Assembly: GCA_050014195.1 (NCBI GenBank)
Contig: JBEKDT010000001.1
Span: 1-64,000 of the forward strand
Length of the DNA stretch: 64,000 bases
Origin: Desulfomonilia bacterium
Lineage (GTDB): Bacteria; Desulfobacterota; Desulfomonilia; UBA1062
Direction: 5' to 3'
Part shown: positions 32,831 to 45,418 of the stretch, piece by piece
Numbering within the stretch: the first letter of the stretch is position 1
Layout of the letters: every line of letters starts with the position of its first letter
Made by a program: the position numbers and the translations under genes
Notes under the pieces: generated by a model
What the model was told of the DNA's origin: nothing
The model's database searches: none
Seen by the model: the letters and a program-made list of their open reading frames with translations, nothing else

Positions 32831-33493
32831 TCAGTACGGCCGTTGTCCGAAGATCCTCGTGCCGATGCGGACCATGGTTGCCCCTTCCTCGATGGCAATA
32901 TGATAGGAATCGCTCATGCCCATGGAGAGCACCTCCATGCTCACGTTCGGAATATCCAGTGCCTTTATCTCATCGAAGAGAGTCTTGGCCTGACGGAAAT
33001 ACGGCCTGAGTTCCTCGGGGTCTTCCACAAAGGGGCCCATGGTCATGAGCCCTTTCACAGAGATGTTCGGTAGGCCGCTTATCTGCCGGATCAGTCCGGG
33101 GACGGCTTCAGGCATGGCGCCGTGCTTCTGTGCTTCGCGCCCGATATTCACTTCGATGAGCACGGGCATGATCTTGCCGTGCTTGGCTGAATGCTGGTCG
33201 ATCAGGCCCGAGAGCTCCAAAGAGTCAACGGTCTCGATCATATCGAACAGCGGCACGATGTGCTTGACCTTGTTCTTCTGGATATGGCCGATAAAATGCC
33301 ATGCAGCCTTCTTGCCGATGGCTTCTATCATTTCCTTCGATTCCTGGAGATAGTTTTCACCCACGGCCGTGATGCCTGCGTCGATGGCCTCAAGGATCTC
33401 CTGGGCGTTCCGTGACTTGGCAGCCGCTACTATATTGATACCCTGGGGTATCTCCGAGCGCAATTCCAAGACATTGTCTCTGATCTGGCCCAT
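32831..33493 (-). CDS. yggS: PLP homeostasis protein
   Basis: GENYLQE, WHFIGHIQKNK, GLMTM, LSMGMS, RIGT. Confidence 0.95.
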   Translation of the reverse strand: MGQIRDNVLELRSEIPQGINIVAAAKSRNAQEILEAIDAGITAVGENYLQESKEMIEAIGKKAAWHFIGHIQKNKVKHIVPLFDMIETVDSLELSGLIDQHSAKHGKIMPVLIEVNIGREAQKHGAMPEAVPGLIRQISGLPNISVKGLMTMGPFVEDPEELRPYFRQAKTLFDEIKALDIPNVSMEVLSMGMSDSYHIAIEEGATMVRIGTRIFGQRPY

Positions 33494-33558
33494 GATTTTT
33501 TCCTATGCTTTGGGGGCAGTCGTTGTCAACGTGCAAAAACTTACTCAGTGATTGAGAG

Positions 33559-33606
33559 TTGACAGGCCTATAGTGCGATGTTACCTTAAACGGCAATAGG
33601 TTACCG
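33559..33606 (+). promoter_or_regulatory. Sigma70 promoter with a candidate NrpR operator
   Basis: TTGACA-N17-TACCTT, then CGGCA-ATAGGT-TACCG (two mismatches to CGGAA-N6-TTCCG). Confidence 0.55.
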
Positions 33607-33626
33607 ATATTCCTTAGGAGATCATT

Positions 33627-34637
33627 ATGTTCGCCTATGATGAGATGGAACGGAAGAGCATCCTGATTTTGCGCATCCTCAACCAGGCCCAGCAGCCCCT
33701 CGGTGCGCGCATCATCGCCCGGAGGATGAAGGATTACGGGATCAACCTGAGCGAGCGGGCGGTGCGATACCACCTGCAGTTCATGGACCAGCGGGAGCTC
33801 ACCCGGTTCGTCGGCAGGAGGGACGGCAGGGTGATCACACCGAAGGGTGTCGAGGAGCTCCGCAATGCACGGGTACAGGATAAGGTGGGATACTGTATCT
33901 CCCGCATGGAAATCCTTGCCTACAAAACAACCTTCGACCCTACAGCCGGTAATGGCGTGCTCCCCATCAATGTCTCATTCTTCCCTGCCGAGAGCTTTAA
34001 AGAGGCGTTGAAGGGTATGAAGCCTGCATTTGAAAAGAACTTGTGCGTAAGCGAGCTTGTGGCGGTAGCCCCTGAGGACGCCTTCCTCGGGGATGTGCAT
34101 GTGCCCCAGGGGTGCATAGGCTTTGCCACGATATGCAGCATTGTACTATCCGGCGTTCTCCTAAAACGCGGCATCCCCCTGGAGTCCAAGTTCGGGGGTA
34201 TCCTCCAGGTCAGCGAACACAAGCCCATGCGTTTTGTGGACCTCATCCATTATTCCGGGACATCCCTGGATCCATCCGAAGCCTTCATCAGCGCCAGGAT
34301 GACCGCCGTGCGGGATGTTTTGAGACGGGGGGAAGGCAAGATCCTTGCGAACTTCTGTGAGGTTGCCGGTGTCTGCAGGGATGGTGTCGAAGAGGTCATG
34401 GAGCTCTTAAAGGGTGTGGGGATAAATGCCGTGATCATAAAGGGCAAGATGGGTGAGCCGGTCTGCCAGGTGAGCGTCGATGTGAACAAGATGGGCATGA
34501 TCCTGCTGGGCGGACTCAACCCGGTTGCAGCAGCAAGGGAGGCCGGAGCGGAAGAGACGAACCTCCCTATGTCCACGGTCATGGAATACAACGATCTCAG
34601 AAGATTCTCATCCGTGTATCGCGAGTATCTTGGGTGA
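33627..34637 (+). CDS. nrpR: NrpR-family nitrogen repressor (wHTH plus one NRD domain)
   Basis: PLGARIIA..LSERAVRYHL, TICSI, Y.GTSLDP.E.F, GGLNP. Confidence 0.85.
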   Translation: MFAYDEMERKSILILRILNQAQQPLGARIIARRMKDYGINLSERAVRYHLQFMDQRELTRFVGRRDGRVITPKGVEELRNARVQDKVGYCISRMEILAYKTTFDPTAGNGVLPINVSFFPAESFKEALKGMKPAFEKNLCVSELVAVAPEDAFLGDVHVPQGCIGFATICSIVLSGVLLKRGIPLESKFGGILQVSEHKPMRFVDLIHYSGTSLDPSEAFISARMTAVRDVLRRGEGKILANFCEVAGVCRDGVEEVMELLKGVGINAVIIKGKMGEPVCQVSVDVNKMGMILLGGLNPVAAAREAGAEETNLPMSTVMEYNDLRRFSSVYREYLG

Positions 34638-34682
34638 AGAACTGTTGCCCCGCGCAGCAAGCTTAGGCGGGATCATTAAAAG

Positions 34683-37061
34683 CTAACCCAGCTCTATCCT
34701 GGTCCTGCTGATGATCTCGTCCTTCACGGTGTCGGGCAACTCATCGAAATAGGCGCAGTAACCCGCCACCCTCACTACAATGCCCGGATACCTACCCGGG
34801 TGCGACCGGGCGTCCATGAGGACCTCGGGGTCCAGCACATTGAGCTGCATTTCCATGCCACCCTGGGCGAAGAATCCTTTTGTGAGTGCGGTTATGGTGT
34901 CCAGGGCCTTTTCCCCTTTCAGTGAGGGCATATCAAAGCGCATGTTCAGGGCATAGCCATTGGGAGATAGCCTCGAATCCACGGCGGCCACCGAGTTGAG
35001 CAGGGCCGTGGGGCCGTTTAAGTCCCGCCCGTTGCAGCACCCCATGCTTGCCGCAAAGGGCTCTCCCGCCTTTCTTCCGCTCGGCAGGGATGGTGTCCTT
35101 CTCCCGAACGCTACATGGGTCGTGGAGGAATAGAACCCCGGCACATAGGGGCCTCCCCTGGTGTTACGATATCGGGAAAGGGCATCATGGAAGATATGTA
35201 CCACGAGGTCGGCGTAGCGTTCAGGCTCGCCGAGGTCATTGCCGAATTTCCCGGCGGAAAGCAGCTCGGCCCTCAATTTCGCGTTGTCCTTGAAGTCTTG
35301 CCTCATGGCCTCGATCACCTGCGCCAGGGTGTATGACTTTTTTCTGAACACCACCTCTTCGATGGCGGCAAGCGAATCCGCCACATCCGCCACACCCACG
35401 CCCTGGATGCCGCTTGAATTGTACCTGGCGCCTCCTGCAGTCACATCCTTACCGCTCTTCAGGCATCCCTCCACAAGCATGGAAGAAAACGGGGTGGGGT
35501 GGAAGTCGCAATTGGCCTTCTCGATGATCCGGATGTCCCTGACCAGGCGTTTCACCATGAATTCCACCTGGGCCTTGAAGGCATCGATGATACCGTCCAT
35601 GGTCGTGAAGGTGGATGGATCGGCAGTTCTGGCCCCGGCCCTGAACCTATGATTCGGCCTCTTACCTTTGTTCAGTGCCAGGACCAGGCACAGGGGGAGG
35701 TTGAAGAGAGCGGCATCGGTCGAGCAGAAGCTCCTGCCGGGTATGGTCGGCTCCACGCAGCCCACCACGCCATAGTCGCGGGCATCTTCAAGGGGATAGC
35801 CATGGGAGATGAGCGATGCGATGGTAGCCTCATCGTTGAACAGGCCCGGCACACTGTTTCCTTTTCGGGCCACATCCAGGGTGCGCCGCACATATTTCTC
35901 GGGTGATGCGGCATGGATCCTGGCCATGTAGTTGGGGTCGCGCAGGCCCGCAAGCTCCATGACATCGAGGAAGAGGTAGGTCAGGTCGTTGACTGCATCC
36001 CTGCCGTCCCGGTCCATGCCTCCCACGGTGGCTGCCTGGGCCACCAGGTATCCGCCGTGGTATTCGCTCGTCCTGCTGGAGAGCAGGAACATGTGTTCGG
36101 TTGTCTTGGCAGAGAAGCACAGCAGCAGCTCCAGGGCCTTGTCCTTGTCTATCCTGCCTGTCTCGATGTCATTCTGGTAAAAAGGATAGAGGTACTGGTC
36201 GATACGACCGAAGGATACTGCAGAGTTGATTCCTTCAAGGCAGACAGCCATGTGGGTGAGCCACAGCGCCTGCAGGGCCTCATGGAGTGTCTCGGCGGGC
36301 TCCAGGGGCACCTTGTCGCAGATGTGTGCGATATCGAGCAGCTCCTGCCTTCTCGCTTGCAAGGGCTCCGTGGATGCGAGCCTATATGCCTCAAGGGAGA
36401 GCCTTTTTGCATATTCGGCCAGACCCTCGCAGGCGATCAGCGCCGCTGCATGGAGGTCGGACCTGGACTCCTCTAAAGTTTCCATGAAGCCCTTGATGCC
36501 GAGCCTTATCATGCTGCCGTAATCGGGCAGGAAATGGCCGATGCCCCCGCTCTCATTGATGAGGTAGAAGGTGGCGTTAAGCTGCTCCAGTACAAAACGC
36601 ATAAGCTTCGGGCTGTACCACTTGAATGCCCGTGAATTCATATTCCTGAAGTACCAATAGGGGATGACCTTAAAGAGGAGTTCCAGGCGCTCCTTCCAGG
36701 AAACCGGGTAAGGGTTTGTCTTTCTCCTGTTCATCCAGAGAAGCTCTTCGCTCATGACGACCCCGGACAGCTCCGGTTGAATGATAACCGATTTCCGGTG
36801 GCTGCCCACATTGCCGACGATGAGCTCGTCGTCGAATATCTTCACCGACTTATTCCGGAGCAGGTAACGCAGTGCCTTGGCCTTGCGCACCATCATAGAT
36901 TCTGTTGGATCGTCGTGCCTCTTGAAAAATTCCGTGATGAGCAGCGCTCGCTCGGTACAGAGGCGTACCGGCTGTGAGAGCAGGGCTTCCTTGATACGAG
37001 TGAAACGCCCGGCAGGGCTTTTATTGTCGTCGGGCCTCTTTTGTGCGGATTTGGCTCTCAT
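34683..37061 (-). CDS. Glycyl-radical enzyme B (eliminase/dehydratase-like, 792 aa)
   Basis: SFGRIDQYL, GCVEP Cys loop, C-terminal RVAGY. Confidence 0.93.
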   Translation of the reverse strand: MRAKSAQKRPDDNKSPAGRFTRIKEALLSQPVRLCTERALLITEFFKRHDDPTESMMVRKAKALRYLLRNKSVKIFDDELIVGNVGSHRKSVIIQPELSGVVMSEELLWMNRRKTNPYPVSWKERLELLFKVIPYWYFRNMNSRAFKWYSPKLMRFVLEQLNATFYLINESGGIGHFLPDYGSMIRLGIKGFMETLEESRSDLHAAALIACEGLAEYAKRLSLEAYRLASTEPLQARRQELLDIAHICDKVPLEPAETLHEALQALWLTHMAVCLEGINSAVSFGRIDQYLYPFYQNDIETGRIDKDKALELLLCFSAKTTEHMFLLSSRTSEYHGGYLVAQAATVGGMDRDGRDAVNDLTYLFLDVMELAGLRDPNYMARIHAASPEKYVRRTLDVARKGNSVPGLFNDEATIASLISHGYPLEDARDYGVVGCVEPTIPGRSFCSTDAALFNLPLCLVLALNKGKRPNHRFRAGARTADPSTFTTMDGIIDAFKAQVEFMVKRLVRDIRIIEKANCDFHPTPFSSMLVEGCLKSGKDVTAGGARYNSSGIQGVGVADVADSLAAIEEVVFRKKSYTLAQVIEAMRQDFKDNAKLRAELLSAGKFGNDLGEPERYADLVVHIFHDALSRYRNTRGGPYVPGFYSSTTHVAFGRRTPSLPSGRKAGEPFAASMGCCNGRDLNGPTALLNSVAAVDSRLSPNGYALNMRFDMPSLKGEKALDTITALTKGFFAQGGMEMQLNVLDPEVLMDARSHPGRYPGIVVRVAGYCAYFDELPDTVKDEIISRTRIELG

Positions 37062-37096
37062 GCGGACTTCTCCTCCTTCATGGGGTCTTCTTTTAA

Positions 37097-37153
37097 GTAG
37101 GAGCGGCTTCAGCCGCGACCATTACATACCGATCGCGCCTGAAGGCGCTCCTA
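37097..37153. repeat. GTAG-type REP doublet
   Basis: GTAGGAGCGGCTTCAGCCGCGA ... TCGCGCCTGAAGGCGCTCCTA; same family as 62189-62465. Confidence 0.85.
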
Positions 37154-37164
37154 GAAAACCTGAC

Positions 37165-38013
37165 TCAATAATTCACTACGGGTTTAAACTCCTGTTCGGG
37201 GTAGATCTGGCCCGGCTTGGGCGGCATGGAATTGTATACCCAGTCGATGTCCACACATCCGAGTGTGATCCCCCGGTGCTTCTCAAACCCGGTGAACACA
37301 CCCCTTACCAGCACATCCTCCATGTCCATGGTCAGGCCGAACACGGCTACAACAGAGCCCTTATGTATCGCGTTCAATTCTTCCTTATATGCCAGCGGCG
37401 AAAATGCGAGTCGCGTACTGCCTGCTGCCTGGCAGCCGATCAAAGGGATGATCACCGGGTATGAGTCCTCACCGGCGTACGAGATAAACTTGATGGTGTC
37501 GAGCCTCTTGAACAGGCCCTCGGCCCAGGGCTTCAGGATGCGCTTTGAAAGCATCGGCCTGACGGCCGACCTTCCCGCCAGGGCCAGGACCGAACCGAGC
37601 CCGATCCGTACAAGCGGCAGGGATTCCTTGCCGTAAGTCTCAACGAGGTCCATATAGTGCACGGTATGGATGCCGAAGTAGGCATTGTAGCGGAACATGG
37701 GCTTCAAGTTGAACATCTCGTAGTCTTCGCCGTGGGCGGCCTTATGGGTATAGAGCGCCTTGCCGCGCCACAGGCTCTTGTCCATGGTCATGATGGCAAA
37801 GCCTGTCTTGGGATTGGTCTTCACGTGCTCCTTGCTCATGCCTTCTGAGAACTGGCCCCAGATGAGCTTGGTGGGGGTCTTTGCCTGCAGCGCCGTGATG
37901 AGGGTGACGTGGGGCAGGCCTTCGGGGTTTATCGTGGCGATCAATCCAACCTTTGCCTCGGGCTCAAACTGCTTCAGGTCTTCATCATCAAAACGCGTAT
38001 AGGTCTTTTTCAT
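37165..38013 (-). CDS. Tandem pyridoxamine-5'-phosphate-oxidase-like (FMN split-barrel) protein
   Basis: IATINPEGLPHVT...NPK in the N-half; ISYAGEDSYPVIIP in the C-half. Confidence 0.75.
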   Translation of the reverse strand: MKKTYTRFDDEDLKQFEPEAKVGLIATINPEGLPHVTLITALQAKTPTKLIWGQFSEGMSKEHVKTNPKTGFAIMTMDKSLWRGKALYTHKAAHGEDYEMFNLKPMFRYNAYFGIHTVHYMDLVETYGKESLPLVRIGLGSVLALAGRSAVRPMLSKRILKPWAEGLFKRLDTIKFISYAGEDSYPVIIPLIGCQAAGSTRLAFSPLAYKEELNAIHKGSVVAVFGLTMDMEDVLVRGVFTGFEKHRGITLGCVDIDWVYNSMPPKPGQIYPEQEFKPVVNY

Positions 38014-38145
38014 GCATGCCCTCCCCTTTTATTCTCGGTGACTCTTCCTCTATCCACCGTGTCATTCCTACGAAAGCTTCGAATCCAGGAATATCAAAGC
38101 ATTCTGAGCCCATGCTCCCGGGGATGACAGTCCTTTGCTCCTTGA

Positions 38146-39189
38146 TCATCCGATCACCCCTTGCTTGGTGACGCCCAATGAGGCTTTTTCATCTGCATAC
38201 TCATACGGATGGACCTTGCTCATGGGCCCGCTCAGATGGACAATTTCAGGGTCAACACCCGAACTCCTTGCACTCTTTGCAAGGCGCTCGGCCTCATCCT
38301 GGTCAAGGAGCGCCGTCTTCCTGAACTGCCAGTCAATCCCAAGCCCGTCATACTTATTGATGCACAGGTTGTTGAAGGTGCACAGCTCCCACCTGCTCAC
38401 GGCCGGACTCAAGTTTTTCTTGATAAATGCACCGATCCCCTTGAGGTTGTCCGGTGTGGCGGTGTATCCCGGAATCAAAGGAGTGCGCACCCAGAGATCC
38501 CCGGGCATGGAGCTGTCCTCCATGGATTTGCCGATCTTGACAAGGTTTTCGAGGATCTTCTCAGGGGAGACCCCGGTGAATTCTTTATGCCTCTTGGGGT
38601 CAATCTCCTTGAGATCGTAGAGGACCAGGTCCGTATACGGCAGGAGCGACTTGATGGTCTCCCACGAACACTGCCCGCAGGTATCAAGGGCGGTATAGAC
38701 GCCCTTGAGCTTGAAGGCCGCGAGGAGCTCTTGTGTGAATTCGCCCTGCAGGGTGGGCTCGCCGCCCGAGAGGGTCACCCCGCCGCCTGACTTCTGAAAA
38801 TACACCTTATCCTTGAGCACCTCATGGAGGAGACCATCCACCTCGCAGACCTCTCCATAGACCTCCATGGCCGTAGACGGGCAGGCCTGCACGCACGCGG
38901 TGCAGGAATCGCATTTCGATCGGTCGATGGTTATACCGCTGCCCGCCAGCGCGAGAACCCCTTTCGTGCAAGCCTCGATACAGCTGCGGCAGCCGATGCA
39001 CCTGGACTTCACCCAGTGCACCTGGAGCCTCTTTGAGATGCTCTCCGGATTGTGGCACCAGACGCACTTCAACGGGCAGCCCTTGAAGAATATAGTGCTC
39101 CTGATGCCCGGCCCGTCTTCCGTGGACATGCGCTGGATCCTGAGGATGGTACCCTTGTGCTTATCTTCGTTGCCTTTCATGGTGATCAC
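38146..39189 (-). CDS. Glycyl-radical enzyme activase (radical SAM with a 2x[4Fe-4S] insert)
   Basis: DGPGIRS, GCPLKCVWCHNPE, CIGCRSCIEAC, CDSCTACVQAC, GGVTLSGGEP. Confidence 0.95.
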   Translation of the reverse strand: MITMKGNEDKHKGTILRIQRMSTEDGPGIRSTIFFKGCPLKCVWCHNPESISKRLQVHWVKSRCIGCRSCIEACTKGVLALAGSGITIDRSKCDSCTACVQACPSTAMEVYGEVCEVDGLLHEVLKDKVYFQKSGGGVTLSGGEPTLQGEFTQELLAAFKLKGVYTALDTCGQCSWETIKSLLPYTDLVLYDLKEIDPKRHKEFTGVSPEKILENLVKIGKSMEDSSMPGDLWVRTPLIPGYTATPDNLKGIGAFIKKNLSPAVSRWELCTFNNLCINKYDGLGIDWQFRKTALLDQDEAERLAKSARSSGVDPEIVHLSGPMSKVHPYEYADEKASLGVTKQGVIG

Positions 39190-39203
39190 TTCTCCTTGTG
39201 CCC

Positions 39204-41717
39204 CTATATCGACTCATGGCTTATCCTTGCTATGACCTCGTCCTGCAACTCTCTCCCGATACTCGTGAAATAGGCGTTGTACCCCGTGATCCGCACCAGC
39301 AGCGAGCGGTAGTCCTCGGGCCTCTTCTGCGCGTCGCGCAGCATGTCGGCATCCAGCATGTTGATCTGCAGCGCGCTGCCTCCGTTTTCCACATAGCCCC
39401 TTAAGAATGCCTTGAACTTGGAGCGGTGCTCGGGGTTCTGCAGCAGCGACGGGTTGATGGTGATGGTGTGGCTCGCGCCGTTGGGCAGGCAGTTGTAATA
39501 CCCCTTATAGTCGCCCTGGCCCTGGGGGTCTTTGCCGCCCATGGCCTTGCCTACGGAGTTCGCATTGGCTGTGGGGCCGTTGATGTCCGCCCCGTTGCTC
39601 GGGCAGATGGCGTTTGACAGGAACCTCCCCTTGGGCCTGCCGTCCGGACTCGCCGGCAGGATGAAGCCGTCGCCCACCCAGTAGTTCCAACTCAGCATGC
39701 CCGGCCGGAACCGGCGGTTTGTGGAGACGGTCTTGTACTTCCATGTCTCCTCGCTCCACAGCGCCATGACCGCATGTGCCAGGGCGTCGGCCTTGTCGTC
39801 GTCGCAGCCGTATTTCGGGGCCTTGAACCTGGCCTTGGCCTGCAGCTTTTCATGGCCTCCCCAGTTTGCCTTCAGGGCCCCGATGAGCTCGGCCATGGTG
39901 CATTCCTTGTTGTCGAACACCAGGTTCTTGACTGCCAGCAGCGAGTCCACCGTGGTGGCGAACGTTACCGCCTCCAGCGTGGTGAAGCCCAGCTCAGAGC
40001 CGCCCTCGGTGATGTCGAGCCCCTTTTCCGCACATCCCCTTACCAGGCACGAGAGGTACGGCGTGGGACAGAACCGGGCCCTGATGGATTCGGACTGCTC
40101 ATAGAGCTCGGCACATTTCTTCACGATGAAGCGGGTCTGCTCGGCATACGCCCCCCAGAACTGCTCCCAGGATGCAAATGTCGCTGCATCGCCTGTCCTG
40201 GGTCCGGCCTGCGACACCTTCTCCTTCTTGCCCGTAATGGGGTCGATGAAATCGAAGAAGTCCTTCCCGTTATTCAGGGCCAGCTCAACGGCCTTCAAGA
40301 GGTTGAGGTTGTTGTCCACCGTGCCCGAGCGGTCGTTGCCCTGCATGGTGTTCTCCAGGCAGCCCACGGGAGCATAGTCGTGCACGTTGTTCTCGTTGAT
40401 CAGGTGCGTAACGTTTCCCCTCTTTGCCTCGCGCAGCATCCCGGCCATGGACCGCTCGTCGAAATTCAGCAGAAAAGGCGCGCCCTGGCTCACCGAGATC
40501 ATGTCCACCACCTTGTCCAGCAGCTCATCCGGGGTCCCCCGGTGCAGGCGCACATTGGGCTTGGGCTCTAAAATGGGCGTCATCTCGTCGATGACCTCCA
40601 GCATGGCGAAGGTAAGGTCATTGGTCATATCCTTGCCGCCCGCACCCACGCCGGAGAGCGTGATGAGCTGGCCGTAACCGGCGGTGATGCCGTTGAAGCC
40701 CACGCGGATCATGGCGTCGTACACCGTGTTGGCATGCACCCAGAAGCATTTCAGGATCTCCTTGCCGAACTCAGAGTCCATGCCCTGCTCTATCGAATAC
40801 TGCCAGTAGGGCAGCAAATACTGATCGATGCGTCCGAAGGACACTCCCGGTCCGGGGTAATTCTCGTCGCTCATGATGAGCATGTGCGTGAGCCACAGGG
40901 CCTGCACGGCTTCCCAGAAGGTTGTTGCAGGCTCCCAGGGGACCTTCTTCAGGTTTGCGGCCATCTGGTTAAGCTCTGCCTTTCGGCCCGCATCCTTTTC
41001 CGATGCGGCAAGCTTCCCGCACAGGTCGGCATACTTTGCAGCCAGGTCCCTTGCCATGGTGGAGGCGGTCATCATGGCCTTCAGCTGGGCGCCTTTTCTG
41101 CCCTTCTTGTCATTCCCGGCTAGGGCCTTGTATTTCTTTTCCAGGTCTTCATGGAGGCCCTTCCAGCCGATCTTGAGCGCACGCTCGTATCCGGGGATGA
41201 GGTGGCCGCTCGTGGCACCCGAGTTGCCGTATCCGTGGTCGTGGAACCACTTCATGGATGCGCGGGCCCCCTTCTTGCCGTATATGAGCCTGTCGCGCTC
41301 TTTTGCCTCTTTCTTTGTCCAACACTTGGACGTCTGCAGGTTGAAGCGGCCGCCCGCAATCAGGTCTCCGGGCAGGATCTCCTGGGGCACATAGTTCACC
41401 ATCACCTCCTTGATGAACCAGGCCTTTCGTTCAACCAGGCTCCAGGTCCAGAAGTCCGGGTGCAGCTTAACGGGCCTGGCAGCCTGCTGCATGGATGAGC
41501 GGAAGGTCTGCATGAACGGGTACGTCTCGGGCACGATGTAGAAGGTCATCTCGTCGAACTGCACGTCCCAGGGCGTGCCTGTCGTCCAGGCGGTGAACTC
41601 GTTGTTCCAGGCGCGCTCCACGCCCTTGTAGTAGTAGTCCCGCAGCCAGGTTATACGCGGTGAGAGGTTCTTCGGTTCCTTGATCTTCGAAACGCTAAGT
41701 GCCGCCTGTGCGCTCAT
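39204..41717 (-). CDS. Glycyl-radical enzyme A (divergent, 837 aa)
   Basis: SFGRIDQYL, GCLEN Cys loop, SPDGR, C-terminal RITGY. Confidence 0.93.
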   Translation of the reverse strand: MSAQAALSVSKIKEPKNLSPRITWLRDYYYKGVERAWNNEFTAWTTGTPWDVQFDEMTFYIVPETYPFMQTFRSSMQQAARPVKLHPDFWTWSLVERKAWFIKEVMVNYVPQEILPGDLIAGGRFNLQTSKCWTKKEAKERDRLIYGKKGARASMKWFHDHGYGNSGATSGHLIPGYERALKIGWKGLHEDLEKKYKALAGNDKKGRKGAQLKAMMTASTMARDLAAKYADLCGKLAASEKDAGRKAELNQMAANLKKVPWEPATTFWEAVQALWLTHMLIMSDENYPGPGVSFGRIDQYLLPYWQYSIEQGMDSEFGKEILKCFWVHANTVYDAMIRVGFNGITAGYGQLITLSGVGAGGKDMTNDLTFAMLEVIDEMTPILEPKPNVRLHRGTPDELLDKVVDMISVSQGAPFLLNFDERSMAGMLREAKRGNVTHLINENNVHDYAPVGCLENTMQGNDRSGTVDNNLNLLKAVELALNNGKDFFDFIDPITGKKEKVSQAGPRTGDAATFASWEQFWGAYAEQTRFIVKKCAELYEQSESIRARFCPTPYLSCLVRGCAEKGLDITEGGSELGFTTLEAVTFATTVDSLLAVKNLVFDNKECTMAELIGALKANWGGHEKLQAKARFKAPKYGCDDDKADALAHAVMALWSEETWKYKTVSTNRRFRPGMLSWNYWVGDGFILPASPDGRPKGRFLSNAICPSNGADINGPTANANSVGKAMGGKDPQGQGDYKGYYNCLPNGASHTITINPSLLQNPEHRSKFKAFLRGYVENGGSALQINMLDADMLRDAQKRPEDYRSLLVRITGYNAYFTSIGRELQDEVIARISHESI

Positions 41718-42454
41718 GGCTCCCTCCTTTTGGGCTGGTTGAGGATTGTGCGCAAATGCTCTTCGCCGTGGTTCAATGTCTCTATCATGACGTTCACCGC
41801 CCGCACGGTGTTCTTCTTTGCAATGGCATCCACAAGCCTGCCATGGAAGGCTGCTGTGGCCGGCACATTGGCAGGGTCTGAAAAGAACACGCCGGTGAAG
41901 TTCATGTACACCGGCTTGAACGAGTTGATGAGCAGCGGGTAGATGACGTTTGCGGATGCCATGCCGATGGTATGGTGGAACCTGAAGTCGAGTGCGGTGA
42001 TCTTCTTTACATTCCCGGGGTCAACGGACTCTTCCTTTTCGAGGATCTCGCGGAGCTCGGTTAGGTGATCCTCGGTCCGGTTGGCTGCTGCAAGCCTGGA
42101 GGTCTCGCTTTCCACCAGGAGCCTTATCTGCAGCAGGCTTTCCAACAGGCCTTCGTCGATCGCACCCTGCTGGTAGTTGATGATGGAGTTCAGGATGGCC
42201 AGCGACCCCTCCTTGCGGTAGTCGTTCACAACCGTGCCGATCCTCGGCTTCATGGTAACCAGGCCCTTGGCCGCGAGGTCAACGAGCCCCTCGTGCACCA
42301 CGGGCCTGCTCACGCCCAGCTGCAGGGCCAGCTCTCTTTCCGAGGGCAGCTTCTGCCCGATGGCGATCTTGCCGGTCAGGATCAGGTCTTCGAACCGCGA
42401 GATGAACACGTCTACCAAGCTGTCCGAATGGAGCGGCTTCAGCATGTCCTTCAT
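41714..42454 (-). CDS. FadR/GntR-family regulator
   Basis: LPSERELA..LGVSRPVV; FCD domain with D..FH; stop overlaps the GRE A start (ATGA). Confidence 0.93.
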   Translation of the reverse strand: MKDMLKPLHSDSLVDVFISRFEDLILTGKIAIGQKLPSERELALQLGVSRPVVHEGLVDLAAKGLVTMKPRIGTVVNDYRKEGSLAILNSIINYQQGAIDEGLLESLLQIRLLVESETSRLAAANRTEDHLTELREILEKEESVDPGNVKKITALDFRFHHTIGMASANVIYPLLINSFKPVYMNFTGVFFSDPANVPATAAFHGRLVDAIAKKNTVRAVNVMIETLNHGEEHLRTILNQPKRREP

Positions 42455-42472
42455 TGAACCCCCTTTTATGTG

Positions 42473-42523
42473 GCTGGTGGTAAGGCCAGCTGACAATATA
42501 CACCTGAAATGAGGGGGAGGCAA
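42473..42523 (-). promoter_or_regulatory. Sigma70 promoter and palindromic operator of the GRE operon
   Basis: Minus strand TTGCCT-N17-TATATT (42523-42495); GCTGG-N8-CCAGC containing TGGTAAGGCCA at 42473-42490. Confidence 0.6.
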
Positions 42524-42760
42524 GGAGGAAAAGTACCTTTGATTCTTTATTATGATGTTTAAGTATCGAGCGGAGACTGGAATCAGGCGCTATCCAGTCT
42601 GATCTCTTATTTCGAGATCATTGGTTTGGGAGCCTTCCGAACGTGCCAATTTATTGAAGGAATCTACAGAAATGTATATGGTTAAGATAGTATATATTCA
42701 GAATAAATCAATGTATATAAGGTGGTAATTAATAATTCCACACGTTAAAGGGGGAACAAA

Positions 42761-43339
42761 ATGAAACATCTCATCGTCTATTCACACCCGAACCCAAAGA
42801 GCTTTTGTCATGCAATACTGGAAGAAGTTATAAAGACCTTAAAATTAAGGAATCATGATCTTGTGGTAAGAGATCTCTACGACCTTAAGTTCAATCCCGT
42901 TTTGAGCACATCGGACTTTGTGGCTATTCAGTCCGGAAACATTCCACATGACGTCAAGGAAGAACAAAATTTCATTATCTGGTCTGATATTATTACCGTG
43001 ATACATCCTGTATGGTGGACAGGTATTCCGGCTATGTTCAAGGGCTACATTGATCGTGTGTTTTCACATGGCTTTGCCTATGCCATAGGCGATAAGGGTC
43101 TCGAACAGCTTCTCAAAGGCAAGAAAGTTATCATCTTTAACAGCCAGGGGACACCCAAAGAGATCTATGATGCCTCAGGGATGTCAAATGCTATGCACAT
43201 GACATCAGACACTGGCATATACCAGTTTTGTGGCATCGAAGTACTCGAGCATATATTCTTTTCTGCTGTCCCTTATGTGGATGATAAAACACGGAAGGAT
43301 TATATTGAACAGGTTGGCAATGTTATGGGTCGATATTGA
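42761..43339 (+). CDS. NAD(P)H:quinone oxidoreductase, flavodoxin-2 (MdaB/KefF-like)
   Basis: SHPNPKSF, RDLY, PVWW..PA..KG.IDRV. Confidence 0.9.
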   Translation: MKHLIVYSHPNPKSFCHAILEEVIKTLKLRNHDLVVRDLYDLKFNPVLSTSDFVAIQSGNIPHDVKEEQNFIIWSDIITVIHPVWWTGIPAMFKGYIDRVFSHGFAYAIGDKGLEQLLKGKKVIIFNSQGTPKEIYDASGMSNAMHMTSDTGIYQFCGIEVLEHIFFSAVPYVDDKTRKDYIEQVGNVMGRY

Positions 43340-43582: not shown

Positions 43583-45418
43583 ATGTACATCAAACATTTA
43601 CTTTTCGAGAACGTTGGACCCATTCAGTACATCGACTACACTTTTCCTTTTGACGACGAAGGAAAACCAAAGCCTGTGGTGCTGGTTGGGATGAATGGTT
43701 CTGGAAAAAGTATCTTGCTATCACACATCGTGAATTCACTGATTAGTGCCAAACAAGAAATATTTGAAAACACTGAGGTTGAGAAAGGGAAAGTATATAA
43801 ATACAGATCCCCCAGTTATATCACGACAGGATATGAATACTACTTCGCTAGGCTTCAGTTCGAATCTGATCTTGAGTCTGGAGAGTGGCAGATAAGCATG
43901 TCACGCAACGATTTCGAAAGCAAGTTTAACTACACGCCGAACCACAAGGAATGGTCACTGGTGCCGGAGAAGGAAACATCAATGATATGGTCAAACTTTA
44001 ACAACAAGATAAATGATGTTAAAACTCTCCTGAATAACAACTGTGTCCTCTACTTTCCCCCCAATCGATTTGAAGAACCGGCATGGCTCAATTATGACAA
44101 TTTGGTCGCTCGTGCGGAGTTTTCGGATATCAAACATATTCAGGGCATCTCCAACCGTAGTATCATCCAATACTCCCCCCTTACACAAAATAAGAATTGG
44201 CTACTGGATGTTCTCTTTGATAGACAGGCCTTTGAGATTCAGACGCAAAATTTTCCTGTGCAACTGGATCCAACCAAAAACATTCCATTACCGTTATTTG
44301 CCGGATACTCTGGTCCCTCGACCAACCTGTACTTGGGGATTTTAGACGTGCTCCGTTTAATAGTCGGATCAATAGACAACCCCCGTTTCGGAGTGGGGCC
44401 ACGCAAAAATCGCCAGCTAACCGTGATGCGTAACGAGAGACCATGGATCCCAAATGTATTTCAACTCTCTACCGGAGAGACTTTGGTTCTGAATCTTTTC
44501 CTTTCTCTACTCCGCGATTTCGATCTGACCGATGGCGGATTCCATAGTTTGGACCAAGTAAGAGGAATAATGCTGGTAGACGAGATTGACTCACATCTCC
44601 ACTGTGACCTACAAAGCAACGTAATTCCTTCTCTAATGAAACGATTCCCCAGAGTGCAGTTCATTGTAACATCGCACTCGCCCTTGTTCTTAATGGGTCT
44701 CCAAAGAGAGTTGTCTGATGACGGCTTTCGAATTCTGTCTCTCCCGGAAGGTAATGAAATAGGTATTGAACGATTCTCGGAGTTTCAGAACGCATATCAA
44801 GTTTTCAAGCAATCATCTGCTTATGAAAACGATCTTAAACTGATACTCGAACGGGCAGGACAAGATGTTGTCATTGTCGAGGGCAATTACGATGTTCTCT
44901 ATCTTCGGAAAGCTGCCTCGTTGCTTGGCCACGAAGAAACCATTAAGGGTGTGGAGTTACTTGATGCTGACGGTTTTGGCAATCTGGACAAGATATGGAA
45001 ACACTTTGATTCACGATTGGCTCAGCTCTCCCCCCGTAAAACCCTTCTCGTCTATGACTGCGACACGACCAAGCAAAATGCTGATCGGGGGCGGATTATT
45101 AAACGGGTTGTCCCTTCAGTATCCGGCAACCCAATAACCAAAGGTATAGAAAACCTTTTCCCTCAAAGCACAATCGATGCCGCACGCAAAGCAAACCCCC
45201 GTTTCATAGATGTGACGCCGGCTGTTAAAAGGATAATTCGTGGAAATGAGATCATTCAACCCGAAGTTTTAGAAGTCAATAAAGATGAGAAAGCTAATCT
45301 GTGCAATTGGCTGTGCCAGAATGGTACCGTCGATGATTTTATTGGCTTTCAGTCAGTTTTTCACCTCATAAGGAATGCATTGGAAGAAGGATCAGGCACA
45401 CGCGAGGATGAGGCGTAA
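43583..45418 (+). CDS. ABC-type ATPase with a C-terminal TOPRIM-like domain (OLD-family-like)
   Basis: GMNGSGKS, LSTGE, LVDEIDSHLH, TSHSP; VEG..D and YDCD; AT-rich. Confidence 0.8.
   Translation: MYIKHLLFENVGPIQYIDYTFPFDDEGKPKPVVLVGMNGSGKSILLSHIVNSLISAKQEIFENTEVEKGKVYKYRSPSYITTGYEYYFARLQFESDLESGEWQISMSRNDFESKFNYTPNHKEWSLVPEKETSMIWSNFNNKINDVKTLLNNNCVLYFPPNRFEEPAWLNYDNLVARAEFSDIKHIQGISNRSIIQYSPLTQNKNWLLDVLFDRQAFEIQTQNFPVQLDPTKNIPLPLFAGYSGPSTNLYLGILDVLRLIVGSIDNPRFGVGPRKNRQLTVMRNERPWIPNVFQLSTGETLVLNLFLSLLRDFDLTDGGFHSLDQVRGIMLVDEIDSHLHCDLQSNVIPSLMKRFPRVQFIVTSHSPLFLMGLQRELSDDGFRILSLPEGNEIGIERFSEFQNAYQVFKQSSAYENDLKLILERAGQDVVIVEGNYDVLYLRKAASLLGHEETIKGVELLDADGFGNLDKIWKHFDSRLAQLSPRKTLLVYDCDTTKQNADRGRIIKRVVPSVSGNPITKGIENLFPQSTIDAARKANPRFIDVTPAVKRIIRGNEIIQPEVLEVNKDEKANLCNWLCQNGTVDDFIGFQSVFHLIRNALEEGSGTREDEA

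Follow-up and report, generated by a model that had tools for sequence, protein, structure and literature searches.

The window analysed here, 64,000 nucleotides from the start of contig JBEKDT010000001.1 of a Desulfomonilia bacterium (assembly GCA_050014195.1), carries on its minus strand an operon with two different glycyl-radical enzymes (GREs). In order of transcription its five genes encode a GntR/FCD regulator of the FadR subfamily, GRE A, a GRE activating enzyme (activase), a tandem split-barrel protein (SB) and GRE B. Comparison with related loci showed that the conserved unit is GRE A, the activase and SB, here called the cassette, and not the five genes. The reading favored, with moderate confidence, is that GRE A and GRE B are two separate Cys-x-Glu enzymes that share one activase despite their different glycine loops, with SB serving GRE A. 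An earlier note, made from this DNA alone, had described a five-gene operon and proposed that it serves either two sequential eliminations or a GRE heterodimer. Its five intact, co-directional minus-strand open reading frames (ORFs) were all found. Among named relatives the nearest (96%) is a metagenome-assembled genome (MAG) from Desulfomonilia.

GRE A has 332 relatives in GTDB genomes. The best 80 of these 332 loci, which include Desulfobacterota, Spirochaetota, Chloroflexota, Binatia and others, were surveyed, with counts taken over testable loci. The activase gene lies directly behind GRE A in 66 of 69 loci and SB lies within 6 kb downstream in 55 of 56. GRE B comes next after SB in just 10 of 46. 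SB thus holds up as a conserved partner, and a conserved five-gene unit is not supported. A second survey covered 301 genomes of the window's phylum, with the GRE A clade delimited at an analyst-set threshold of E ≤1e-130 and at most three candidates scored per genome in the wide searches. SB was found in 41 genomes, GRE A in 40 and both in 39, or 40 if G211, whose GRE A is interrupted by an N gap, is counted; G264 has a weak single-domain barrel only. The linkage extends to distant relatives: of 15 loci with SBs of 22-29% identity, 14 have a distant GRE A gene (43-50%) alongside and the other is on a 4.2 kb contig; at one of these loci, L094, the barrel is single-domain. In addition, all five Chloroflexota-centered loci with enough flank (L233-L237) have the order GRE A, activase, SB. 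Cassette genes broken by frameshifts or stops were seen in L002, L059, L016, L032 and L192, and these are probably sequencing errors.

Nine loci (L020, L022, L082, L136, L185-L188 and L196) have GRE A and SB adjacent with no activase between them. A further candidate for an activase-less locus, L081, was rejected; its gap is a stretch of N. In all four activase-displaced genomes tested (G211, G241, G297 and G181) an activase of the cassette clade is encoded elsewhere. Since SB stays beside GRE A even where the activase is displaced, it tracks GRE A and not the activase. This bears on the alternative that SB, rather than being a partner of GRE A, passes electrons to the activase as a flavin carrier in place of flavodoxin. 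Activases of the radical SAM type depend on a one-electron reductant, the SB fold is nearest to small FMN-binding proteins, and the SB gene usually stands directly behind the activase gene. But, besides remaining with GRE A at such loci, SB was absent beside all six lone activases of the cassette clade that were examined (L177-L182), and G239 keeps the activase with no SB found. An electron-carrier role is therefore quite improbable.

SB (37165..38013, minus strand) is a 282-residue protein of the PNPOx-like/FMN-binding fold. Its AlphaFold2 model, built with a 59-row alignment, has a pLDDT of 90.3 and shows two barrels linked by a helix. The two halves align with each other (HHalign probability 97.6%, E 2.8e-12), in agreement with the double split barrel of the earlier note. 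The best fold matches are HupZ (7kpz, Z 14.4; also 5esc), Swol_0183 (3in6, Z 13.7) and the Desulfovibrio vulgaris FMN-binding protein (Z 11.7), which have the same fold as the N-terminal domain at 10-17% identity. All of these matches fall on residues 1-134; the second domain was barely probed by them and is assigned by its profile match to the first. Unlike these single-domain proteins, SB joins two barrels in tandem through an internal helix and has an invariant RYNxY motif (R108-Y109-N110-x-Y112), in addition to an invariant C-terminal Pro-Pro (P264-P265). The family is broad, with 184 clusters at 50% identity (E ≤1e-30), and the Pfam PNPOx score of the window protein, 21.2, is under the cut-off of 28.1. 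The basic-Ser/Thr turn of split barrels, which is presumably phosphate-binding, is partially retained in domain 1 and missing from domain 2; FMN, F420 or heme are possible ligands. Prediction of a complex between GRE A (residues 120-837) and SB scored 0.01, which is no answer and was used neither way.

Gene linkage suggests that SB is a partner of GRE A, either an accessory subunit or an enzyme handling its substrate or product. Multi-subunit GREs such as HPAD, BSS and MASS likewise have a dedicated, co-inherited accessory protein. In those enzymes the accessory subunits are Fe proteins resembling HiPIP or rubredoxin (section 4.2 of a 2026 review, PMC13450708), whereas the candidate partner of GRE A is a tandem split barrel. 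No split-barrel partner of GREs appears in the abstract and sections 2.5, 4.2, 5 and 7 of that review. In the literature covered, one PNPOx-like gene is reported from a GRE operon, that of LssP in the lss operon, its function being unclear to its authors (PMC12583861); LssP is a possible relative of SB. A literature search, which covered mostly freely readable papers, found none on a glycyl radical with a split barrel and none describing the cassette. As an accessory protein of GREs, SB would be of a new kind. At L094 (7742-8185) a single-domain split barrel of 147 residues lies behind GRE A and the activase, inside an ABC transporter operon of the branched-chain amino-acid type, possibly a clue to the ancestral state or to a different substrate.

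GRE A (39204..41717, minus strand, 837 residues) and GRE B (34683..37061, minus strand, 792 residues) are 30.1% identical across 674 residues. Both score above the cut-offs of PF02901 and PF01228 and so belong to the PFL-like GRE superfamily. Pfam searches of the operon identified both as PFL-like/Gly-radical proteins and also showed a radical SAM protein with an Fer4 insert, a weak PNPOx_N and a GntR/FCD protein. As the earlier note observed, GRE A has the motifs GCLE (G452-C453-L454-E455) and RITG812Y, GRE B has GC435VE437 and RVAG767Y, and each keeps the radical Gly and Cys-x-Glu, C453/G812 and C435/G767 being invariant among relatives. The Glu of each motif, E455 in C453-L-E455 and E437 in C435-V-E437, is invariant as well. 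Cys-x-Glu is described as the eliminase/isomerase signature (PMC13450708, sections 5 and 5.6-5.7); the motif is necessary and not sufficient, as decarboxylases have it too. In the favored reading GRE A and GRE B are separate enzymes of the eliminase/isomerase type, a class that cleaves C-O, C-N or C-S bonds.

Neither enzyme reaches any NCBIfam cut-off, even that of the broad PFL2/glycerol-dehydratase subfamily TIGR01774 (633.9 and 407.6 against 678.2 bits), so the proposal that both lie outside the characterized classes stands for every class tested. The hallmark of pyruvate formate-lyase is a Cys-Cys pair; with Cys-x-Glu, and TIGR01255 scores of 86 and 145 against 994 bits, neither enzyme belongs to that family. 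Scores are also far below the cut-offs for CutC (TIGR04394, 314.5 and 480.8 against 1050 bits, with no shell genes at the locus), HypD (NF043068, 341.8 and 482.6 against 1100), the C-S lyases IslA/IseG/HpsG and HpfG (NF048009/NF048011, 357-471 against 1000) and the decarboxylases HPAD and IAD (NF033715/NF033718, 176-327 against 1100-1150; PhdB was not among the comparisons). At the position of the late-strand sulfonate-binding Arg of IseG, GRE A has Gly673. Genes of the two GRE clades are labeled "formate C-acetyltransferase" or "glycerol dehydratase". The best solved single-sequence match of GRE A is Archaeoglobus fulgidus PFL2 (2f3o, 289 bits); GRE B matches 2f3o with 497 bits and then 1r8w with 488 bits. 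In profile searches CutC, HypD, PFL2 and glycerol dehydratase rank nearly level.

The match to A. fulgidus PFL2, also called PflD, raises the alternative that one or both GREs are fumarate-adding alkyl- or arylsuccinate synthases, as proposed for PflD and Asgard homologues. PflD is the best solved relative of GRE B, and Ass activity has been suggested for it (PMC8163825; PMC13450708, section 7), although its function is debated (PMC13450708); in addition, the PNPOx-like lssP sits in a limonenylsuccinate synthase operon (PMC12583861). Against this, the X-succinate synthases BSS and MASS are among the lowest-scoring solved GREs for both enzymes, far under the eliminases (163-169 versus 289 bits for GRE A, 193-219 versus 497 for GRE B). 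Both enzymes are of the Cys-x-Glu type, and among the ORFs of at least 80 residues surveyed near the GRE loci none for a small Fe-S subunit is conserved. Fumarate addition is thus barely credible. GRE B and PFL2 both have an S-[ST]-D-A-A-L strand, and both carry small residues in place of the pocket Tyr and of the second His. PFL2, like all the other solved structures, is only distantly similar to GRE A and GRE B.

The closest characterized systems for comparison are DhaB1/DhaB2 of Clostridium butyricum (1r8w/1r9d) and GRE propanediol dehydratase (5i2a, 9rco), which share the GRE fold, Cys-x-Glu and an activase with a ferredoxin insert. The reference residues of glycerol dehydratase are H164, C433 and E435; its other residues, and the assignment of GRE A and GRE B residues to the pocket, were read from alignments. 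In GRE B the invariant residues are H176, C435, E437, D449 and G767. It keeps five positions of the dehydratase site: the general-acid His (H176), C435, E437, the Asp at Cys+14 (D449) and Y644 in the GLYP strand. The second His/Ser pair is replaced by S280-A281 and the pocket Tyr by A341. GRE A keeps only the His (H172), Cys and Glu in register, with P290-G291 and G349 at the latter positions; it has Val at Cys+14 and Asp at Cys+15 and carries an SWNYW strand that is unique to it. Its invariant residues are H172, C453, E455, R463, T466, D468, E582, W677-N678-Y679 and G812; in 51 sequences with identities as low as 44%, D462-R-S-G-T-V-D468, which forms a strand behind the Cys loop unlike that of the dehydratase, E285/Y287, N330/Y333/D334, E384-P-K386, E582 and S676-W-N-Y679 are also invariant. 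GRE A shares with CutC of CutC/CutD the Thr at Cys+13, a G-x-L-S strand and a late-barrel-strand His, but it has His for the CutC Asp in the first active-site loop, does not keep the aromatic cage positions and has no microcompartment. Among ORFs of at least 80 residues, no gene for a microcompartment, an aldehyde or alcohol dehydrogenase or a small Fe-S subunit adjoins the operon, as had been noted; unlike the diol pathways it has a split-barrel partner.

GRE B is an optional member of the operon. Orthologues (at least 59% identity) were found in 14 of the 301 genomes; 13 of these 14 carry GRE A, versus 41 of 301 overall (Fisher P 1e-11, overstated as the genomes are kin), and in 28 of the 41 genomes with GRE A no GRE B orthologue was found. 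GRE B has joined the cassette twice and independently: behind SB in the window lineage, and ahead of GRE A in L085. In L059 and L060 it begins about 15 bp past SB. The L085 gene lies upstream of a distant-type GRE A and groups with lone GRE B genes in a FastTree phylogeny made without characterized references. Five close relatives have no GRE B in the genome, with GRE A, activase and SB intact. In two of these, remnants of GRE B of 32-33 codons were seen right behind SB, at L010 (14477-14572) and L012 (14462-14560), with no other copy in the genome.

This distribution decides against an obligatory heterodimer, in which GRE A and GRE B would form one catalytic unit. Co-transcription in the window lineage and the single activase would suit such a unit. 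However, GRE B is optional and has been deleted from the five close relatives with the rest intact, and the obligatory heterodimer is therefore rejected as highly improbable. Each enzyme also holds a full Gly/Cys/Glu set of its own, and the word heterodimer is absent from the 2026 review (PMC13450708).

The other proposal of the earlier note, sequential eliminations, survives in one direction only: GRE B would need the system of GRE A, while GRE A does without GRE B. Here GRE A, with SB, would make a product that GRE B converts onward, and sharing of the activase would be a by-product. The nesting of GRE B within GRE A genomes, its two entries into the operon and its close spacing to SB in L059 and L060 speak for consecutive steps. 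On the other side are the 28 genomes with GRE A and no GRE B, the lone GRE B genes, whose neighbors are unrelated, and G239, which has GRE B and a cassette-type activase with GRE A and SB not found. Moreover, the aldehydes and ketones made by eliminases would usually have to pass through a redox step, which SB could provide, before another eliminase could act on them. Consecutive steps carry some weight but are unlikely.

The activase (38146..39189, minus strand, 347 residues) is a radical SAM enzyme with the ferredoxin insert of the earlier note, here of two clusters, and has CxxxCxxC at C38 and CxxCxxCxxxC motifs at C64 and C93; it scores 318.7 bits with TIGR02494 (cut-off 174.35). All TIGR02494 matches of the 13 other GRE B genomes were placed in a quick IQ-TREE phylogeny. 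In it the cassette activases fall into a single clade (18 rows, SH-aLRT 99), which has a member in 13 of the 14 GRE B genomes; the exception, G217, is 88% complete and has no activase assembled. Lone members of the clade occur in G211, G241, G269, G297, G181 and G239. Two genomes are telling: G115 (98% complete) has GRE A, GRE B and one single GRE activase, and G239, which keeps GRE B and the cassette-clade activase, is 97% complete. No activase lies within about 6 kb of any of 11 unlinked GRE B genes, whereas an activase is nearby at three of the four sister-group loci (43-46%). Thus the idea of one activase for both GREs is upheld as probable. E. coli PflA similarly activates PflB and the unlinked TdcE (PMC13450708, section 2.5), but the glycine loops of PflB and TdcE are identical.

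Several points weigh against the favored reading. The surveyed genomes are related to one another, and most of them are MAGs. At L061 the 10 kb downstream of GRE A contain no SB and no activase, and in G091 (93% complete), where GRE A is near a contig end, SB was not found. No other neighbor, catabolic ones included, is conserved around the cassette in the loci compared. The Asp of GRE A at Cys+15, one position off from glycerol dehydratase (Cys+14), means that its site is no copy of a diol dehydratase. SB of the window has Met59 in the putative phosphate-binding turn in place of the usual Lys or Arg (K 51, R 17, L 24 and M 6 of 118 relatives), which makes flavin binding uncertain. The glycine loops differ, RITGYNA in GRE A and RVAGYCA in GRE B. 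The 2026 review describes activases as GRE-specific and cross-activation as rare, mostly between near-identical loops (PMC13450708, abstract and section 2.5). Finally, contig C7 of the window genome encodes a second activase, with no adjacent GRE, that could in principle serve GRE B.

The last three points would be expected if GRE B had its own cognate activase elsewhere, here that on C7, and were linked to the cassette by shared niche or ancestry. G115, however, holds one activase for both enzymes, and no other activase clade spans the GRE B genomes. The clade of the C7 enzyme is represented in 7 of the 14, and every member save the C7 one flanks a GRE of its own. The C7 activase groups with activases flanking other GREs, among them the one beside a GRE in L006 whose nearest kin is the third GRE of the window genome, on contig C4. 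A separate cognate activase for GRE B is accordingly improbable. The third GRE (C4, L134:6051-9014) has no activase, and the activase on C7 (L135:7269-8210) stands alone; the two are probably a split cognate pair. The C4 GRE is flanked by what we take to be TetR-like, aldehyde oxidoreductase-like and glycerol kinase-like genes. L006 itself packs four GREs and three activases into 22.5 kb; the cassette and two more GRE-activase pairs are among them.

For the favored reading the following mechanism is proposed; its chemistry, like the activase sharing, the role of SB and the substrate, is deduced from the observed gene content, co-occurrence, residues, fold and operator conservation. GRE A, activase and SB would form a self-contained, self-repressed cassette. 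The activase would put the radical on Gly812 of GRE A. Cys453 would then take a hydrogen from the carbinol carbon, Glu455 would deprotonate the hydroxyl and His172 would help the neighboring group leave, giving a 1,2-elimination or isomerization by the conserved chemistry of Cys-x-Glu GREs. SB would act with GRE A and not as electron donor of the activase. GRE B would be an independent, homodimeric dehydratase-type enzyme with the His/Glu/Asp triad of glycerol dehydratase in a widened pocket. Having no activase of its own, it would be activated by that of the cassette, usually in trans, and it has moved into the operon in the window lineage and, independently, in one other. Both GREs would act on hydroxylated substrates bulkier than glycerol.

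As to the substrate, a bulky vicinal diol or a beta-hydroxy ether or amine from glycerolipid or fatty-acid breakdown is tentatively suggested. Cassette hosts include Smithellaceae and Syntrophaceae, which are fatty-acid syntrophs. In a post hoc test of 15 families chosen after viewing (120 loci in 55 clusters, with the window genome as the only background), enoyl-CoA hydratase occurs near GRE A in 7 clusters against 1.6 expected (P 0.001), glycerol kinase in 3 against 0.34 (P 0.005) and sulfatase in 2 with zero background copies; acyl-CoA dehydrogenase, acyl-CoA ligase and Fe-alcohol dehydrogenase are not enriched. These neighborhoods hint weakly at glycerolipid or fatty-acid breakdown. Lipase-like, acyltransferase, aldehyde oxidoreductase and acyl-CoA dehydrogenase genes are scattered among the neighbors. 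Thiamine genes beside GRE A, presumably ThiT-like and pyrophosphokinase-like, were rejected as synteny; they are divergent and confined to one family.

A bolder and unlikely extension is that GRE A and SB are a new GRE class, in which a flavin-type subunit coupled to radical catalysis cleaves an ether or head-group bond of glycerolipids in syntrophs and other sediment anaerobes, and that a generalist activase also switches on GRE B. Independently of this extension, the two tightly conserved GRE clades, hosted by syntrophic and sediment anaerobes, lie outside all classes that the 2026 review lists (PMC13450708), where a promiscuous activase is described as a sought tool (sections 2.5 and 7). 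The sharing of an activase by GREs of 30% identity with differing loops, if it holds, would bear on what sets activase specificity. The window operon is the simplest construct for tests of activase sharing and of SB because all components are in one transcription unit.

The cassette is headed by its own regulatory region. A sigma-70-type promoter (42495..42523, minus strand) has a -35 box TTGCCT (42523-42518), a 17 bp spacer and a -10 box TATATT (42500-42495). Its 9/12 match to consensus is by itself at chance level; a TTG-type box and a -10 box are found at the same position upstream of the regulator in most relatives. Directly downstream of the -10 box lies a predicted GntR/FadR-subfamily operator (42472..42490, minus strand), a 19-bp motif kept ahead of 47 of 50 cassette regulators. 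It has a position weight matrix score of 30.4 here and the next best site of the genome 18.0. As the only strong site in the genome it fits autorepression of this operon alone, the behavior expected of the GntR/FadR subfamily. The pattern was matched in 16 of 22 selected genomes, nearly always before the cassette and mostly once per genome; extra sites place the gene of an acyl-CoA dehydrogenase (L188) or those of a membrane protein and a sulfatase (L052) first in the operon, in one lineage each.

The regulator (41714..42454, minus strand) most likely starts at ATG 42454 (246 residues) and not at TTG 42523 (a 269-residue ORF), since this TTG forms the front half of the conserved -35 box. A regulator stands upstream of GRE A in 42 of 76 testable loci. 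The window protein is a GntR/FCD protein by Pfam, as the name fadR in the earlier note implied. But it falls below both cut-offs for FadR of the E. coli type (NF003444/TIGR02812, 85.5 against 189 and 83.5 against 249.2 bits), so that "FadR" is a subfamily label only. The intergenic gaps along the operon are -4, 14, 132 and 103 bp. A single transcript is plausible because from 33500 to 42800 the minus strand has just one terminator-like site, and it comes after GRE B. The gap between SB and GRE B contains a REP-like inverted pair (37098..37153, minus strand) that folds as a long hairpin. It is a genome-wide repeat, with 100 matches on both strands at up to 3 mismatches, and is not specific to the cassette.

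An activase-GRE fusion was seen at L238 (6756-10010; G303, contig C143), where a single 1084-residue ORF has a radical SAM activase domain (residues 34-199) before a full PFL-like GRE that includes the Gly-radical domain. The stretch 32831-34637 has an NrpR regulator gene convergent with GRE B, and a divergent YggS/PLP-binding gene; these are kept in close relatives only and were rejected as synteny on that ground. Beyond the regulator, a lower-GC stretch on the plus strand (43583-45418) encodes a 611-residue ABC/AAA ATPase that matches the Septu PtuA and PARIS AriA models. With a C-terminal part that has no assignment, it is possibly a single-gene anti-phage system.

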